A stretch of DNA of 64,000 nucleotides from an uncultured Aliarcobacter sp. (GTDB taxonomy: Bacteria; Campylobacterota; Campylobacteria; Campylobacterales; Arcobacteraceae). How positions within the stretch are numbered: position 1 is the stretch's first letter; the number at the start of each line of letters is the position of its first letter. Below are positions 7,129 through 45,129 of the stretch, in pieces. The notes below the pieces were generated by a model, which saw only the letters and a list, made by a program, of their open reading frames with translations, had not been told where the DNA came from and did not search any database. Location of the stretch: positions 43,084-107,083 of the forward strand of contig CAXXLV010000001.1 in the NCBI GenBank assembly GCA_963664305.2, read 5' to 3'. A program made the position numbers and the translations under genes.

Positions 7129-9458
<2,330 letters not shown>

Positions 9459-9592: not shown

Positions 9593-10189
9593 ATGTTAGT
9601 TACAAAAAAAGCTCCAGATTTTACAGCAACAGCTGTACTTGCAGATGGTCAAATTGTTGAGAATTTTAATTTATATGAAAATATTGGTGAAAAAGGTGCA
9701 GTATTATTTTTCTGGCCTTTAGATTTTACGTTTGTTTGTCCATCTGAAATTATAGCTTTCTCTAAAAGAGTTGATGAATTTGAAGCAAGAGGAATTCAAG
9801 TTATAGGTTGTTCAGTTGATTCTCAATTCTCTCACTTTGCATGGAGAGAAACAGCAGTTGAAAATGGTGGAATTGGAAGAGTAAAATTCCCAATGGTTGC
9901 AGATTTAAGTAAACAAATTTCTAGAGATTATGATGTATTATTTGGTGATTCTGTGGCACTTAGAGGTTCATTCTTAATTGATAAAGATGGAACTATCAGA
10001 CATGCAGTAATCAATGATTTACCACTTGGAAGAAATGTTGATGAAATGATTAGAATGGTAGATGCAATGTTATTTACAAATGAGCATGGTGAAGTTTGTC
10101 CTGCTGGTTGGGCAAAAGGTGACGAAGGTATGAAAGCAAATACTGCTGGTGTTGCTGAATACTTAGCTAAAAATGAAAATAAATTATAG
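9593..10189 (+). CDS. ahpC: 2-Cys peroxiredoxin (alkyl hydroperoxide reductase C)
   Basis: DFTFVCPSE and GEVCPAGW motifs. Confidence 0.97.
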   Translation: MLVTKKAPDFTATAVLADGQIVENFNLYENIGEKGAVLFFWPLDFTFVCPSEIIAFSKRVDEFEARGIQVIGCSVDSQFSHFAWRETAVENGGIGRVKFPMVADLSKQISRDYDVLFGDSVALRGSFLIDKDGTIRHAVINDLPLGRNVDEMIRMVDAMLFTNEHGEVCPAGWAKGDEGMKANTAGVAEYLAKNENKL

Positions 10190-10197
10190 GATTCATC

Positions 10198-10515
10198 ATG
10201 GGAAAATATTTAGAATTAAATCAAAATAATATAGAAGATACGATAAAAGAAGGTGTGTCATTAGTTGACTTTTGGGCACCTTGGTGTGGACCTTGTAGAA
10301 TGTTAGCTCCAACTATTGACCAATTAGCTGAAGATTTTGAAGGAAAAGCAAATATTTGTAAAGTAAATACAGAAGAAGAACCTGATTTAACTGCACAATA
10401 TCAAGTAAGATCTATTCCTACTATTCTTTTCTTTAAAGATGGAAAAGTTGTTGATCAACTAATTGGTGCTACAAATAAAACTACTCTTGAAGAAAAATTA
10501 AATAAATACTTATAA
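10198..10515 (+). CDS. trxA: Thioredoxin
   Basis: WCGPC motif, 105 aa. Confidence 0.97.
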   Translation: MGKYLELNQNNIEDTIKEGVSLVDFWAPWCGPCRMLAPTIDQLAEDFEGKANICKVNTEEEPDLTAQYQVRSIPTILFFKDGKVVDQLIGATNKTTLEEKLNKYL

Positions 10516-26451: not shown

Positions 26452-26949
26452 ATGGCAACAGCAATATTTTTTGCAAGTAGTACAGGAAATTCAGAAGAAA
26501 TAGCAAATAAAATTGCTTCTAAATTAGGAGATATTGAAGTTTTTGATTTAGCTGGAACTAAAATTGATAAAATCAATAACTATGACAAATTAATTCTTGG
26601 GGGCTCAACTTGGGGTGATGGAGAATTAAATGATGATTGGGAAGATGCATGGGGCGATTTTTGTAAATTGGATTTATCAAATAAAACTGTTGCTCTTTTT
26701 GGTTTAGGTGACCAAGAAAGTTATAGTGATGAATTTTGTAGTGCAATGGGAATTATTTATGAACAATTACAATCAAACAATGTAAAAGTTGTTGGTTTCA
26801 CTTCAACAGATGGATATTATCATGATGGTTCAAAAGCTCAAATTGACGGTAATTTTGTTGGATTAGTAATTGATGAAGATAATCAAAGTGATTTAACTGA
26901 TGAAAGAATTGAAAATTGGGTAAATGAAATTAAATCAGAAATTTTATAA
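26452..26949 (+). CDS. fldA: Long-chain flavodoxin
   Basis: ASSTGNSE, GGSTWGDGE, FGLGDQ, FVGLVIDEDNQ motifs. Confidence 0.96.
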   Translation: MATAIFFASSTGNSEEIANKIASKLGDIEVFDLAGTKIDKINNYDKLILGGSTWGDGELNDDWEDAWGDFCKLDLSNKTVALFGLGDQESYSDEFCSAMGIIYEQLQSNNVKVVGFTSTDGYYHDGSKAQIDGNFVGLVIDEDNQSDLTDERIENWVNEIKSEIL

Positions 26950-26985
26950 TTAAAAATAGTATATTAAGAAATTCTTAATATACTA

Positions 26986-27435
26986 CTAATCTTGACAACT
27001 TTCGCAAGTTCCATATAATTGCATAGAGTGACTTGTTATTTTAAATTTATTTTTTTTAGCAATTTTGTCTTGTCTTTTTTCAATTTCATCATCAATAAAT
27101 TCTATAATTTTGCCACAACTTGTACATATTAAATGGTCATGATGAGATTTTGAATTACTTTCGTATTTTTTTCCATCTGTTCCAAAAGTAATTGAAGTAA
27201 TTAAATCTACTTCTTCTAAAAAACTAAGAGCTCTATATACAGTTGCAATTCCAATGTTTGACTCTTTATAATCTTTTTTTATTTGATTATAAATTTCTTC
27301 AGCAGTTAAATGTTCTTTTGCATGTAATAAAATATTTAAAACGATCTCTCTTTGCTCAGTATATTTAAGACCTTTTTGCTTTACTATTTTTTTTAATTCA
27401 TCAATTATTTCTTCATTATTGTTTTCAGTTAACAT
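26986..27435 (-). CDS. fur: Ferric uptake regulator
   Basis: KYTEQREIVL, HLTAEEIY, IGIATVYRAL, HHDHLICTSC, LYGTCESC. Start reassigned to ATG 27435 (149 aa). Confidence 0.92.
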   Translation of the reverse strand: MLTENNNEEIIDELKKIVKQKGLKYTEQREIVLNILLHAKEHLTAEEIYNQIKKDYKESNIGIATVYRALSFLEEVDLITSITFGTDGKKYESNSKSHHDHLICTSCGKIIEFIDDEIEKRQDKIAKKNKFKITSHSMQLYGTCESCQD

Positions 27436-27543
27436 TAAAATCACCCTTAAAAAATTATAACTTTTTAGTATATCTAAAACTTCCCCTAAATTACAAATCA
27501 GTTTATTGATAGTAATCAACTATAAGAAAGGGTAATTATATTA

Positions 27544-27558
27544 TAATAATCATTATTA
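27544..27558. promoter_or_regulatory. Fur box in the fur/feoA divergent intergenic region
   Basis: TAATAATCATTATTA, a perfect 7-1-7 palindrome, two mismatches to consensus. Confidence 0.7.
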
Positions 27559-27577
27559 ATCCTATCTGAGAAAAAAA

Positions 27578-27805
27578 ATGACTTTAAATGAATTAAAATT
27601 GAATGAAAGTGCTCAAATTGTTGCAATAAATTGTGACAATATTTTAAAAAATAGACTTTACTCTTTTGGTATAGTAAAAGGTTCAATTGTAACAATCGAA
27701 GGTTTAACTCTTACAAAAAGTACAATCGAAATAAAAGTTAATCAATCTAAAATCGCATTAAGACTAAGTGAAGCTTCAAAAATTGAGGTTGAATATGCAA
27801 GATAA
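27578..27805 (+). CDS. feoA: Ferrous iron transport protein A
   Basis: 75 aa; RLYSFGI...IALRLSEA SH3-like pattern; directly before feoB. Confidence 0.93.
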   Translation: MTLNELKLNESAQIVAINCDNILKNRLYSFGIVKGSIVTIEGLTLTKSTIEIKVNQSKIALRLSEASKIEVEYAR

Positions 27806-29903
27806 AATTATAACAATTGCATTAGTAGGTCAACCAAATGTTGGTAAGTCTATGCTTATCAACTCTTTGTCAAATGCTAGATTAAAAGTTGGAAACTTTT
27901 CTGGAGTAACAGTTGCAAAAGAAGAAGTTTTTTTAGAATATAAAGGTTATCAAATTCAAATTATTGATTTACCTGGTGCTTATTCATTAAACAATTATAC
28001 ATTAGAAGAAAAAGTTACTAAAGAGTTTTTAGATAATTCTCCATACGATATCATTTTAAATGTTTTAGATTCAACAAACCTACAAAGAAACTTATTTTTA
28101 ACTGCAGAACTATTAGCTTTAGATAAAAAAATGATAATTGCACTTAATATGAGTGATGAAGCCCAAAAAGAATCAATAATTATTGATGAAGTTCAACTGA
28201 GTAAAATTCTTGGTAAACCTTGTATAAAAACAAGTGCTGCAAAAAAAGTAGGTATTCAAAAACTTTTAGATGAAATTGTATTTAAATATGAAAATGAAAA
28301 ACTTCCAACAAAACTTTTCTTTTCAAATGTAATAGAAGAAGAGATAGAAGCTATTTCTAAATTATTAGAAGAATGTAATTATAAAACAAATCAAACTTAT
28401 AGACAAATAGCAATAAAACTTTTAAAAGAAGATGTTCAAACATACAAACAACTAAAAGAAGAACCAATTTGGATAAAACTACAAACTGTTTTAAGTGAAG
28501 CATTTAAACATTTATATATTCATTATGAAACAAAAAATATGGAAGATATTTTTAATGATGAAAAATTTGCTTTTGCAAAAGGTGCAACAACAGAAACAGT
28601 AAAACAATCTTTAAAAAGAGAAAAAACTTTAACTGAAAAATTTGATTCATTTTTAATTCATAAATTCTTCGGATTACCTATATTTTTATTTTTAATGTGG
28701 GGATTATTCCAATTAACTTTTGAAATTGGAAGTATTCCAATGGATTTAATTGATGCTTTTTTTGCAAGTATTATTGATAAAACAAAAGAAGTTTTAGGAG
28801 ATAATCAACTTTCTTCAATCATTGGAGATGGTGTAATTGCTGGAGTTGGTTCAGTTATTTTATTTTTACCAAATATTATGATTTTATTTTTTGGTATAGC
28901 TTTACTTGAAACAACTGGTTATATGAGTAGAGTTGCTTTTTTACTTGATGGTTTCTTTCATAAATTTGGACTTCATGGAAAATCTTTTATTCCTTTAGTA
29001 ACTGGTTTTGGTTGTTCAGTTCCAGCTTATATGGCTGCACGTACTTTAAAAAATGAAAGAGATAGACTTTTAACTTTATTTATTATTGGATTCATGTCTT
29101 GTGGAGCAAGACTTCCAATATATGTACTTTTTGTTGGAGCATTTTTTGGACAAAGTAATGCAGGAAATGTATTGTTTTTAATTTATATTTGTGGAGCAAT
29201 TTTAGGTTTATTTGCAGCTAAAATATTAAAAATTGTTGTATTTAAAAGTGAAGACGAACCTTTTGTTATGGAAATGCCAAAATATAGAATTCCTTCATTT
29301 AAATTAATTTGGCACACAGTTTCAAATCAAGCTTTAATGTATTTAAAAAAAGCGGGAACATATATCCTTGCTGCATCATTACTTATTTGGTTTGCAAGTA
29401 ATTATCCAAAACATCTTGACGTGGAAAAAGATTTTAATTCAAAAATAGAATTAGCTCAAAATGATGAAGAAAAAATAAATCTACAAAATGAACTAAGTCT
29501 TTATAATCTTGAAAATTCTTATCTTGGTTATCTTGGAAAATTTAGTGAGCCTTTATTTGAACCATTAGGATTTGATTGGAGAATGTCTGTCGCTCTTGAA
29601 ACTGGACTTGCTGCAAAAGAGATTGTTGTTTCTACTTTATCAATCCTTTACGGTTTAGGAAGTGATAATAATGAAACATCAGATAGTTTAGTAGAAAAAA
29701 TTAAAAACAACATTCCTTTTGCTTCAGCGATGTCATTTATTATATTTGTAATGATTTATTTACCTTGTTTAGCAGCTTCTATGGTATTTGTAAGAGAAGC
29801 AGGAAATTGGAAATATTTATGGTATCTATTTATTTTCACAACATCAACTGCTTGGATAATGTCTTTTATCACGTATAACGTAACAAAATTACTGATAAAT
29901 TAA
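27795..29903 (+). CDS. feoB: Ferrous iron transport protein B
   Basis: GQPNVGKS, DLPG, GFGCSVPA, FMSCGARLP motifs; ATG 27795 preferred. Confidence 0.97.
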   Translation: MQDKIITIALVGQPNVGKSMLINSLSNARLKVGNFSGVTVAKEEVFLEYKGYQIQIIDLPGAYSLNNYTLEEKVTKEFLDNSPYDIILNVLDSTNLQRNLFLTAELLALDKKMIIALNMSDEAQKESIIIDEVQLSKILGKPCIKTSAAKKVGIQKLLDEIVFKYENEKLPTKLFFSNVIEEEIEAISKLLEECNYKTNQTYRQIAIKLLKEDVQTYKQLKEEPIWIKLQTVLSEAFKHLYIHYETKNMEDIFNDEKFAFAKGATTETVKQSLKREKTLTEKFDSFLIHKFFGLPIFLFLMWGLFQLTFEIGSIPMDLIDAFFASIIDKTKEVLGDNQLSSIIGDGVIAGVGSVILFLPNIMILFFGIALLETTGYMSRVAFLLDGFFHKFGLHGKSFIPLVTGFGCSVPAYMAARTLKNERDRLLTLFIIGFMSCGARLPIYVLFVGAFFGQSNAGNVLFLIYICGAILGLFAAKILKIVVFKSEDEPFVMEMPKYRIPSFKLIWHTVSNQALMYLKKAGTYILAASLLIWFASNYPKHLDVEKDFNSKIELAQNDEEKINLQNELSLYNLENSYLGYLGKFSEPLFEPLGFDWRMSVALETGLAAKEIVVSTLSILYGLGSDNNETSDSLVEKIKNNIPFASAMSFIIFVMIYLPCLAASMVFVREAGNWKYLWYLFIFTTSTAWIMSFITYNVTKLLIN

Positions 29904-36536: not shown

Positions 36537-37283
36537 TTAATTATCTCCACTCTCTCTTTCTCCACCATAAGAAGAAATTCCATAATCTAGGTTAGCAACT
36601 GATTTAAATCCTAAATCAAGCATTATTCTTTGGCAATATGCACTTCTACTTCCACTATGACAATAAACAATAACAGGAATATTTTTTTGATTATTGATTC
36701 TTTCTAAAGCATGATAAAATGATGTAGTTGGTATTAAATAATCTGTTCCTTTAATTCTTGTTCCAACCCACTCCATCCATTCTCTTGTATCAACTAAGTT
36801 GAAATCAACAAATCCTAAATCTCTTGCTTCAAGTAGTGATTCAAGTTCTAAAGAATTTATTTCTTCTTTAGTTAATAAATTAGCACACTCCTCTTTTGTT
36901 AAACCTCTAGAATGTGTTGCTATTGCATCATGTACATCAATTTGTTCTTTAATTTCGTTTGCTTTTTGTTCTGTACAAAAAATTCCACAGTGACATGAAC
37001 CTTTTGATGGTATTTCATTTGTTAACGCAGGAGTACAAGGACAAAGTCTATTATCACTATTTTCTTGTTCTGTTGGAGTTTCTCCAATAACCATAAAACA
37101 TGGGCAAAATCTTTTTCCATAGATTAACTTGTTTCTAGTTAATCCCATTTGTATAGATTCATTAACTTCATCATCTGGATTATAAACTAATCCATGTTCA
37201 TCTAAGACCTTATTTGTAAATTGTTTTGTTAATTCAAGTTCTGTTTGAAATTCATCACTATTTATATCTATTTTTCTAATCAT
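36537..37283 (-). CDS. Ferredoxin:thioredoxin reductase catalytic domain fused to a rhodanese domain
   Basis: CPC...CPC...CHC triad in the N-half; VDTRE...IKG and YCHSGSRS in the C-half. Confidence 0.88.
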   Translation of the reverse strand: MIRKIDINSDEFQTELELTKQFTNKVLDEHGLVYNPDDEVNESIQMGLTRNKLIYGKRFCPCFMVIGETPTEQENSDNRLCPCTPALTNEIPSKGSCHCGIFCTEQKANEIKEQIDVHDAIATHSRGLTKEECANLLTKEEINSLELESLLEARDLGFVDFNLVDTREWMEWVGTRIKGTDYLIPTTSFYHALERINNQKNIPVIVYCHSGSRSAYCQRIMLDLGFKSVANLDYGISSYGGERESGDN

Positions 37284-37374
37284 AAATTATCCTAATATTT
37301 TAAAGTTTGTAATAGTAATATAATTTATATTAATATTTGTATTCAATGCAAGAATTGATATTTATATAATAAAT

Positions 37375-37593
37375 TCATTTATCAATCATAGATAAATATA
37401 GTTTTTCAACTTTCTCTCTTGCCCATGGAGTTTTTCTAAGAAATTTTAAAGAAGATTTAACACTAGGGTCATAATTGAAACAATTAATATTAATTCTTCT
37501 ACCTAATTCATCCCAACCATAGTAATCAACTAAAGAATTTATTATCATTTCTAATTTTATTCCATGTAATGGATTATTTGGATTATTGTTCAA
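37375..37593 (-). CDS. VF530/DUF2132 family small protein
   Basis: NPLHGIKLE...YYGW...[26 protein letters not shown]; start reassigned to TTG 37593 (AGGA RBS). Confidence 0.88.
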
Positions 37594-37671
37594 TTTTATT
37601 CCTAATTTTTGATAATTATAACATATAAAAGCCATAGATAAAGTAGATAAAAAGTGAGGCAGAAAGCGGGG

Positions 37672-37727
37672 CAAAAAAAAAGCTTCTGCTAAAAAGAACT
37701 TAAAGAAGTTCAAATTAGCAAAAGCTT
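37672..37727 (-). terminator. rrn operon terminator region
   Basis: Nested stem AAGCTTCTGCTAA...TTAGCAAAAGCTT followed by a T run on the minus strand, just after 5S. Confidence 0.6.
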
Positions 37728-37743
37728 TGAAAAAAACTCAAGA

Positions 37744-37859
37744 GCTGGCAGCGGCCTACGTTTCCACCAGGGGACCCGGCAGTATTATCGGCGATGAAGT
37801 GCTTGACTTCCAGGTTCGGAATGGGACTGGGTATTTCCACTTCTCTATAGCCACCAGCA
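37744..37859 (-). rRNA. rrf: 5S rRNA
   Basis: Terminal stem GCTGG/CCAGC, CCCATTCCGAAC motif, about 116 nt; ends approximate. Confidence 0.93.
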
Positions 37860-38008
37860 AAGTTGAGTAAAGAAGATATTATAAAAAATATACTCTTCAC
37901 TCAACTCGTTTAGGAGTTAAGAAAAAATAATGTTAAAGTCTTTTCACAATATATACTAAATATAAGAAATATATTTAATAAGATAGTAAACCAAAGAATT
38001 GTTTAAAA

Positions 38009-40915
<2,907 letters not shown>

Positions 40916-41214
40916 TAATAAATAGAGTTAAACTCTATCGCTTTTTGATAATATTCTTTGGCTACTATCTTATTAAACATATTATTTAAAATATATCCAA
41001 TAAAATAATGTTGTGTTCTATCTAATTTCTTAGATATGAAATTTTTTTTGTTTTAAATTATTTAACATTTCTGTTATCTAATTCTTACGAAAAAATTAAA
41101 GACTTTAACATTATATTTTTAAATATCGTTTTGATTTTGAAAATCAAATATAAATTCAATCTCTTATTGAACTTATATTTAACTTTTAAATCAGATGAAC
41201 TTATTAGTTATAGG

Positions 41215-41479: not shown

Positions 41480-42994
<1,515 letters not shown>

Positions 42995-43283
42995 AAATTA
43001 TAGAGTTTTTGAAACTGACAAATTTTATAACTCTTCAATTACAAAATTATCACTCAAATTTTATAGACAAGATTTGTTTTACCAAATTTCTTGTTTTTAT
43101 ATTTTTTAACATTTATTCTTATTTTAAATCTAAATAAACATAGATTTTTTATAAGAGTTCTATATTCGGTTTATAAAGATTACTTTACAAACTTTCATTC
43201 ATTTTTAAAGATCATTCCAGACTCGATTGAATCGTTTCTCTTCAAGCTTTTCGTTTGAAGCGTTCCAGTCAAATTGGACGGGA

Positions 43284-44834: not shown

Positions 44835-44909
44835 TGGCTCCGGCACCTGGATTCGAACCAGGGACCAAATGATTAACAGTCATCTACTCTACCGCTGAGC
44901 TATGCCGGA
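44835..44909 (-). tRNA. tRNA-Asn(GTT), copy 3
   Basis: TCCGGCATAGCTCAG...CTGTTAA...GGTTCGAATCC...GCCA, 75 nt. Confidence 0.97.
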
Positions 44910-44946
44910 ATTTGATTTTTATTTATTGTAAGTTTTAATTTATAAA

Positions 44947-45021
44947 TGGCTCCGGCACCTGGATTCGAACCAGGGACCAAATGATTAACAGTCATCTACT
45001 CTACCGCTGAGCTATGCCGGA
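44947..45021 (-). tRNA. tRNA-Asn(GTT), copy 2
   Basis: Identical 75-nt copy. Confidence 0.97.
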
Positions 45022-45054
45022 ATCTATAAATTCTAATTATTAAAGTCAAAGTAA

Positions 45055-45129
45055 TGGCTCCGGCACCTGGATTCGAACCAGGGACCAAATGATTAACAGT
45101 CATCTACTCTACCGCTGAGCTATGCCGGA
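45055..45129 (-). tRNA. tRNA-Asn(GTT), copy 1
   Basis: Identical 75-nt copy. Confidence 0.97.

Follow-up and report, generated by a model that had tools for sequence, protein, structure and literature searches.

What is reduced by a protein that joins, in one short chain, a module resembling the catalytic subunit (FTRc) of ferredoxin:thioredoxin reductase (FTR) to a rhodanese domain? The question is raised by a 248-codon open reading frame (ORF) in a 64,000-nucleotide stretch of DNA from an uncultured Aliarcobacter sp. (contig CAXXLV010000001.1, positions 43,084 to 107,083), referred to as a whole as the window. The ORF, which begins with ATG, is a genuine gene that free-living Campylobacterales conserve strongly. 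The answer that we favor, and to which we give about an even chance, is that the fusion protein is a reductase driven by ferredoxin or flavodoxin and acts on a persulfide or sulfane sulfur carried by Cys208 of its rhodanese domain. That the protein is a cytoplasmic, flavin-free, two-module reductase is a description that we hold with middling confidence.

Two domains are recognized by Pfam in the encoded protein. FeThRed_B, the family of the FTR catalytic subunit, spans residues 15-115 (E 8.7e-35, 119.4 bits against a cut-off of 22), and Rhodanese spans residues 150-239 (E 7e-12, 46.1 bits against a cut-off of 22.2). A preliminary description of this DNA had named a CPC/CPC/CHC set in the N-terminal half and a rhodanese loop, CHSGSRS, in the C-terminal half; both lie where it placed them and are conserved, and the two halves are matched to solved structures. 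The six FTR cysteines, Cys208, and Arg213 are invariant in all 207 full-length homologues, and His98 is retained in 204, with arginine in the remaining three. This conservation of the motifs is far above chance. The motif spacing is CPC-X18-CPC-X13-CHC, compared with X16 and X8 in classical FTR, and the second spacer is 13 residues long in each of the 168 homologues checked. In the rhodanese domain, the active-site loop has six residues, the length typical of sulfurtransferases, as opposed to the seven residues of Cdc25/Acr2-type loops. Cys208 is the sole universally conserved cysteine of this domain, opens this sulfurtransferase-type loop, and most plausibly carries a persulfide. Judged by its sequence, the rhodanese half is an intact, catalytically competent-looking domain of the sulfurtransferase type, with predicted activity.

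Roles for the FTR residues can be taken over from the FTR structure by alignment to Synechocystis FTRc. We take C60 to be a cluster ligand and C62 to be the exposed, redox-active nucleophile; in the third motif, C97 is presumably a cluster ligand, H98 the catalytic histidine, and C99 the cysteine that pairs with C62 in the disulfide and, in the one-electron intermediate, is bound to the cluster.

Three cysteines lie outside these motifs. C103 (window 36975-36977; CHCxIFC) is found in 200 of the 207 sequences and in stand-alone Campylobacterales FTRc proteins, and is absent from classical FTRc and from the FTR-like disulfide reductases (FDRs). C133 (36885-36887) is located in a linker helix, TKEEC, and C217 (36633-36635) nine residues past the active-site cysteine. 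The latter two tend to co-occur (both in 166 sequences, neither in 24, one only in 17; n = 207), and stand-alone members of the rhodanese subfamily (P0130, P0141, and P0146) likewise have both. The idea that C133 and C217 form an obligate disulfide is weakened by the 41 sequences that are missing at least one of the pair, 17 of which keep just one. A metagenomic protein of 155 residues (P0129) has the N terminus of the family (MINKMDINS...), the linker, and the rhodanese, without the entire cysteine-rich FTR core, and is apparently a deletion derivative.

An AlphaFold2 model, built on an alignment of 51 sequences, contains two well-folded domains (mean predicted local distance difference test score, pLDDT, 88.5; about 90 in the rhodanese). 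The linker falls below a pLDDT of 50 at residues 118-125, and with a predicted template modeling (pTM) score of 0.51, the relative orientation of the domains is not predicted. Within the linker, the motif H-x-H-S-[RK]-G-L-[ST] (residues 122-129, 36897-36920) has low AlphaFold confidence yet is conserved in most families; it is replaced in a short-linker lineage (L081-L083, L154, and L155). Foldseek matches the N-terminal half to 7pwe, 1dj7, 2pu9, and 7bzk, with a probability of 1.00 for the last three, and the C-terminal half to 6mxv, 2kl3, 5ve3, 3ict, 1gmx, and 2mrm, including GlpE and YgaP, and also to Uba4. By sequence, the best PDB matches of the N-terminal half are 4tpu (E 1.4e-6) and 7pwe (E 5.4e-6), followed by 7bzk and 1dj7. 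In phmmer alignments, the three FTR motifs match the CPC/CPC/CHC of Synechocystis (1dj7) and Arabidopsis (7bzk) FTRc column for column, and a five-residue insertion before CHC is common to the fusion protein and the FDRs 4tpu and 7pwe.

The two-domain architecture is widespread within one phylum. A search of 5.8 billion proteins returned 1370 matches, and all 120 of those listed have the same architecture; those named to an organism are all Arcobacteraceae (Aliarcobacter, Arcobacter, and Halarcobacter), and their source names read either [quoted passage not shown] or "sulfurtransferase". In an exhaustive HMMER pass over 1.84 billion cluster representatives, only about five to seven full-length clusters at 50% identity were recovered, the named ones belonging to Sulfurospirillum and Sulfurovum and every named member coming from Campylobacterota. 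When 401 Campylobacterota genomes were sampled, 123 had a match and about 100 a near full-length copy. Near full-length copies occur in ten of the twelve families sampled; the two families without the fusion (f2 and f3) are the source of most negative genomes.

The two modules also occur apart. Stand-alone FTRc proteins of 110-125 residues, 50-60% identical to the N-terminal half of the fusion, are encoded in many Campylobacterales, and in four genomes (G269, G388, G289, and G291) the stand-alone FTRc gene has directly behind it a separate gene for a single-domain rhodanese belonging to the subfamily found in the fusion. At other loci (L081, L082, L084, L057, and L061), an FTRc gene lies immediately 5' of the fusion gene, overlapping it in some, and an additional single rhodanese of the subfamily flanks the fusion at L087 and L096. 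When FTR domains were placed in a maximum-likelihood tree, the Campylobacterales sequences all fell into a single clade (support 100/98). Fused and stand-alone domains interleave in it, and the well-supported branches require a minimum of two changes of state. The neighbors of a sister clade of stand-alone FTRc proteins are an ABM-domain gene and nuo genes, with no rhodanese. The strongest available argument that the FTRc and rhodanese modules form a functional couple is that the same pair has been repeatedly fused and split.

Similar to classical FTRc (1dj7, 2pu9, and 7bzk), the N-terminal module belongs to the same Pfam family, adopts the same fold, and aligns at all three motifs including the catalytic histidine. 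The fusion protein is nevertheless not a classical FTR. It differs in its spacers, in the additional Cys103, in the C-terminal rhodanese, and in its separate clade; moreover, its genome lacks a match to the FTR variable subunit, and its host has its own NADPH thioredoxin reductase. These genome-wide results come from a copy of the genome in which the rRNA operon and the fusion gene's 5' half (G000:C1 around 80004-80366) were masked, such that the searches cover only residues 122-248 of the fusion, in an open frame reported as 2793 residues. No variable subunit (FeThRed_A, PF02941) was found in this partly masked genome, and the control search detected PF02941 in Synechococcus. No second FTRc was found either, the PF02943 count there being zero since the N-terminal half of the fusion itself was masked. 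The thioredoxin reductase is a canonical TrxB (363.8 bits, above the TIGR01292 cut-off).

The FDRs, represented by the rubredoxin-fused protein of Methanosarcina acetivorans (4tpu) and the glutaredoxin/FDR fusion of Desulfotalea psychrophila (7pwe), resemble the N-terminal half of the fusion protein more closely in sequence than other PDB entries do. They too have the longer spacer ahead of the third motif, require no variable subunit, and carry a redox partner fused to an FTR-like module. In both solved FDRs, however, the third motif is CYC, with tyrosine in place of the histidine seen in nearly all homologues of the fusion, and the partner is rubredoxin or glutaredoxin rather than a C-terminal rhodanese. 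In addition, 4tpu and 7pwe branch outside the Campylobacterales clade in the FTR-domain tree, in which a short alignment and long branches leave deep placements uncertain. The fusion protein is thus not a typical member of the characterized FDRs.

For the arrangement of a reductase with a tethered rhodanese, the closest precedent is Npsr, in which CoADR is joined in a single chain to a C-terminal rhodanese of about 100 residues and a surface cysteine of the rhodanese is the first sulfur acceptor (PMC7969121). Npsr reduces persulfides and polysulfides and not disulfides (PMC7969121), and the related CoAPR clears CoA persulfide (PMC9405070). Like Npsr, CoADR-RHD, and CoAPR (3ict and 3icr), the fusion protein has an N-terminal disulfide-reductase module followed by a tethered rhodanese of about 100 residues with a conserved cysteine, and the rhodanese of 3ict superposes on that of the fusion with 25% identity. 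The reductase modules are unrelated: that of the Npsr group uses FAD, NAD(P)H, and bound CoA, whereas the 248-residue fusion contains no pyridine-nucleotide disulfide oxidoreductase domain and has instead a predicted [4Fe-4S]/disulfide module with, presumably, one-electron donors. The likeness would be one of working mode and not of ancestry, making Npsr, by analogy, a functional analogue only. About eight other rhodanese proteins are encoded in the Aliarcobacter genome, and none of its rhodanese matches lies in an ORF of Npsr size; a 491-residue rhodanese-bearing ORF, considered as a possible CoADR-RHD, is ThiI. Among fusion enzymes, the PDB rhodanese closest by identity (31-33%) is that of the persulfide dioxygenase-rhodanese PRF/CstB (5ve3), in which a rhodanese is also tethered to a persulfide-processing catalytic domain; there the partner is an oxidative non-heme iron dioxygenase, in contrast to the reductive partner here.

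Because the two modules have been recurrently fused and split, because Npsr offers a precedent, and because, with a canonical TrxB encoded in the genome, the fusion is not needed to reduce thioredoxin, persulfide reduction is the best-supported reading of the fusion. In the mechanism that we infer, including the binding of a cluster, the identity of the electron donor and of the substrate, and the reaction direction, the N-terminal module would hold a [4Fe-4S] cluster on C60, C81, C83, and C97 beside a redox-active C62-C99 disulfide and the catalytic His98, as placed by alignment. In FTR, one electron opens the disulfide, after which one cysteine stays on the cluster and the other becomes a nucleophile. 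Cys208 of the fusion would be charged with sulfane sulfur, in persulfide form, by thiosulfate, polysulfide, or persulfides of proteins or of low-molecular-weight compounds. One electron from reduced ferredoxin or flavodoxin would open C62-C99, leaving C99 on the cluster, and the C62 thiolate would then attack the Cys208 persulfide, or a mixed disulfide, delivered on the flexible tether. A second electron would resolve the intermediate, releasing H2S and regenerating Cys208-SH. The net activity would be that of a ferredoxin:persulfide (sulfane-sulfur or thiosulfate) reductase; in free-living Campylobacterales exposed to sulfur, it might supply sulfide or serve sulfane-sulfur homeostasis. Cleavage of thiosulfate to sulfite and sulfide has an E0' of about -400 mV and would be feasible with low-potential donors; NAD(P)H-dependent enzymes of the Npsr type drive it poorly.

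The preliminary description had proposed this reduction of a rhodanese persulfide by low-potential electrons, and several observations weigh against it. The AlphaFold2 model, with its low pTM score and disordered linker, shows no confident contact between C62 and Cys208 and no confident domain interface. Neighborhoods were compared at 80 loci from named genomes (mostly Arcobacteraceae and Sulfurospirillaceae) and at about 35 distant Campylobacterales loci, and no conserved ferredoxin, thioredoxin, or sulfur-metabolism neighbor was found at either set; the neighbors are housekeeping or lineage-specific genes. To our knowledge, FTR-type chemistry has been demonstrated only on disulfides, and the rhodanese domain offers only the one universally conserved cysteine. 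A weaker point is that the supplementary files searched of a Sulfurovum indicum S0 transcriptome contain no "ferredoxin-thioredoxin" entry; two S0-induced "rhodanese-like" genes of that organism carry only PF00581 and are not the fusion.

The conserved CHC can also be read differently, as keeping the catalytic histidine of a true FTR, where the two solved FDRs have tyrosine. The protein would then be a genuine reductase of thioredoxin, or of another dithiol protein, and the rhodanese an accessory that substitutes for the variable subunit, docks the target, or regulates the enzyme through persulfidation of Cys208. We regard this as improbable. Its rhodanese is attached by a variable, poorly ordered linker, and the catalytic cysteine and arginine of that domain are invariant, a constraint unnecessary in a domain that only shields or docks. 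The thioredoxin encoded in the window and the stand-alone FTRc paralogues that many Campylobacterales carry without an adjoining rhodanese are in keeping with thioredoxin reduction, although in none of the loci examined is a thioredoxin gene linked to the fusion or to a stand-alone FTRc, and the canonical TrxB is already at hand. FldA and TrxA of the window had been put forward as candidate partners of the fusion protein. Both genes are indeed there, but as partners they find no genomic support: they are 10 and 26 kb away, respectively, on the other strand, and TrxA immediately follows AhpC, as would suit a peroxiredoxin paired with the thioredoxin on which it depends.

In NCBIfam, the rhodanese half is best matched by the rhodanese domains at the C termini of MoeZ and MoeB (E 4e-9 to 3e-6), and these matches point in another direction, as does the Foldseek match to Uba4. 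They would be consistent with a biosynthetic sulfur relay, providing thiocarboxylate for molybdopterin, thiamine, or cysteine or serving tRNA thiolation, in which electrons from the FTR module release sulfide or resolve an acyl-persulfide. The MoeZ/MoeB-type matches, however, are far under the family cut-offs (35.8 compared with 647 bits), the loci examined show no conserved linkage to MoaD/ThiS/CysO, MoeB, or tRNA-modification genes, and the genome already encodes ThiI with a rhodanese of its own, leaving such a relay with quite a small probability.

A third possibility arises from the gene that lies between the rRNA operon and the fusion gene in the window, which encodes a VF530/DUF2132 protein. 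VF530 is found directly 5' of the fusion, on the same strand, in 21 of the 80 loci, with gaps down to 16-20 bp in some Aliarcobacter and Arcobacter, and the two genes are possibly co-transcribed. The fusion could accordingly be imagined as a redox or sulfane-sulfur sensor, in which the state of Cys208, perhaps together with the co-occurring C133 and C217, is set against the ferredoxin pool and relayed to, for example, the VF530 DNA-binding protein. The linkage is confined to some Arcobacteraceae, both additional cysteines are dispensable in many lineages, and VF530 is itself of no established function; we consider a sensor very unlikely. An arsenate reductase or phosphatase of the Acr2/Cdc25 type was rejected because of the six-residue loop, and so was selenium handling, with the selenoprotein families of NCBIfam scoring 52 against a cut-off of 160 (FtrB) and 17 against 115 (rhodanese), no selenocysteine codon, and no linkage. 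Regulation of the reverse tricarboxylic acid (TCA) cycle was reportedly once proposed for stand-alone FTRc; no carbon-fixation gene is linked in the loci examined, and the Aliarcobacter genome was not searched for genes of that cycle.

Returning to persulfide reduction by low-potential electrons, the fusion protein extends two known kinds of enzyme, the FTR-like reductases fused to a partner and the reductase-rhodanese persulfide reductases. The preliminary description had allowed that the architecture might already be characterized. A full-text literature search found no published characterization of an FTR-rhodanese fusion; surveys of FTR evolution were outside its reach, and an earlier mention is possible. 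Surveys by Balsera are said to list domain fusions of FTRc. The combination has been recorded in databases, yet is apparently unstudied. It is possible, though somewhat short of an even chance, that the protein is the first FTR-type [4Fe-4S]/disulfide enzyme to act on sulfane sulfur rather than on a protein disulfide, a small, flavin-free ferredoxin/flavodoxin:persulfide/thiosulfate reductase in the core genome of free-living Campylobacterales. Sulfur and redox biologists are actively asking by what routes cells remove or mobilize persulfides and sulfane sulfur, and the dedicated reductases known are flavoenzymes (Npsr and CoAPR) or thioredoxin and glutathione systems. If the reading holds, an Fe-S enzyme that draws its electrons from ferredoxin or flavodoxin would be a new catalytic solution. 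Microaerophilic and anaerobic Campylobacterales dominate sulfidic habitats, and in them the handling of sulfane sulfur would be tied directly to the pool of low-potential electrons. The non-photosynthetic FTR-like proteins, which are poorly understood, would also gain a physiological role, and the stand-alone FTRc proteins of the same clade would work likewise with separate rhodaneses. Since the natural fusion names the partner, the question is directly testable with one small recombinant protein.

Table. Positions in the window of the fusion gene, its parts, and the other features discussed.
Feature	Position	Strand	Basis or remark
Complete FTRc-rhodanese fusion gene, stop codon included	36537..37283	-	ORF and Pfam; N terminus MIRKIDINS fits homologue consensus MIxKIDxNS
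Shine-Dalgarno-like AGGA, 7 nt 5' of ATG	37290..37293	-	TAGGA or AGGA at the equivalent position in relatives
FTR catalytic-subunit-like domain, residues 15-115; predicted [4Fe-4S] cluster and redox-active disulfide	36939..37241	-	Pfam, PDB matches, Foldseek
First CPC (C60, C62)	37098..37106	-	Alignment to Synechocystis FTRc; 207/207 homologues
Second CPC (C81, C83), predicted cluster ligands	37035..37043	-	Alignment and conservation
CHC (C97, H98, C99)	36987..36995	-	Alignment; His in 204/207, Arg in 3
Linker, residues 116-137, with motif H-x-H-S-[RK]-G-L-[ST] and helix TKEEC (C133)	36873..36938	-	Low pLDDT; variable length
Rhodanese homology domain (Pfam residues 150-239; modeled fold about residues 138 to 244)	36567..36836	-	Pfam, Foldseek
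Rhodanese active-site loop C208-H-S-G-S-R213-S, six-residue sulfurtransferase type	36642..36662	-	Sequence; family consensus C-x-[STV]-G-S-R-S
VF530/DUF2132 gene	37375..37593	-	Pfam VF530, E 3.7e-36; likely start TTG at 37593, giving 72 residues
5S rRNA	37743-37858	-	Same rRNA operon as 16S and 23S
23S rRNA	38004-40917	-	Same rRNA operon
16S rRNA	41480-42997	-	Operon upstream of the fusion gene, with tRNA-Ile and tRNA-Ala
AhpC-TrxA pair (TrxA 10198-10515)	9593-10515	opposite to fusion	TrxA starts 8 nt after AhpC
FldA	26452-26949	opposite to fusion	Flavodoxin

An rRNA operon on the same strand closely precedes the fusion gene. The intervening VF530 ORF as listed (37375-37713, 112 residues) is over-extended toward the 5S rRNA; its homologues have 70-75 residues, and an AGGA precedes the TTG. 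A scan for promoters yielded sites no more frequent than in shuffled sequence, and no terminator was found. Downstream lie a convergent gene for an AI-2E-family transporter and then RuvB and PanB, a block that was rejected as a functional partner, its orientation being convergent and its recurrence plain synteny. The same block, in the order VF530-fusion-AI-2E-RuvB-PanB and with 82% protein identity, is seen in a contig labeled "Candidatus Paceibacteria bacterium" (L004, JBGSBO010000070.1), which is probably a mis-binned Arcobacteraceae contig.

Upstream of the fusion, there is considerable variability across the loci, with VF530, a cytochrome c lipoprotein, Aat, BLUF, ClpS/ClpA, GatC, and DapE all represented. 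In five Arcobacter and Halarcobacter loci (L026, L028, L030, L034, and L037; about 7340-8001), the gene is that of a lipoprotein of about 215 residues with a CxxCH heme motif, located downstream of clpS-clpA, and it overlaps the start codon of the fusion by one base. This overlap suggests translational coupling of a periplasmic cytochrome c to a cytoplasmic protein. In one Campylobacterales family (L081, 7838-11877, and likewise L082 and L083), an operon comprises a stand-alone FTRc, the fusion, and two small unannotated ORFs of 97 and about 110 residues, and continues with, in some cases, a single rhodanese, then a 580-residue DUF7897 protein with HExxH and an 80-residue ORF. A Sulfurovum homologue (L116, 7001-7927; P0128, CAA6817333.1) bears the source name "Rubredoxin" and has a C-terminal extension of about 60 residues; its gene is placed between DUF4395 and DUF302, upstream of a Rieske/cytochrome b/c1 cluster.

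Elsewhere in the window, FldA, Fur (on the opposite strand), and FeoB make up an iron-related cluster (26452-29903). None of AhpC-TrxA, FldA, Fur, and FeoB adjoins the fusion gene or is co-oriented with it. At 44835-45129, upstream of the region with the rRNA operon, the window contains three tRNA-Asn(GTT) genes in tandem, all with the same Rfam score.

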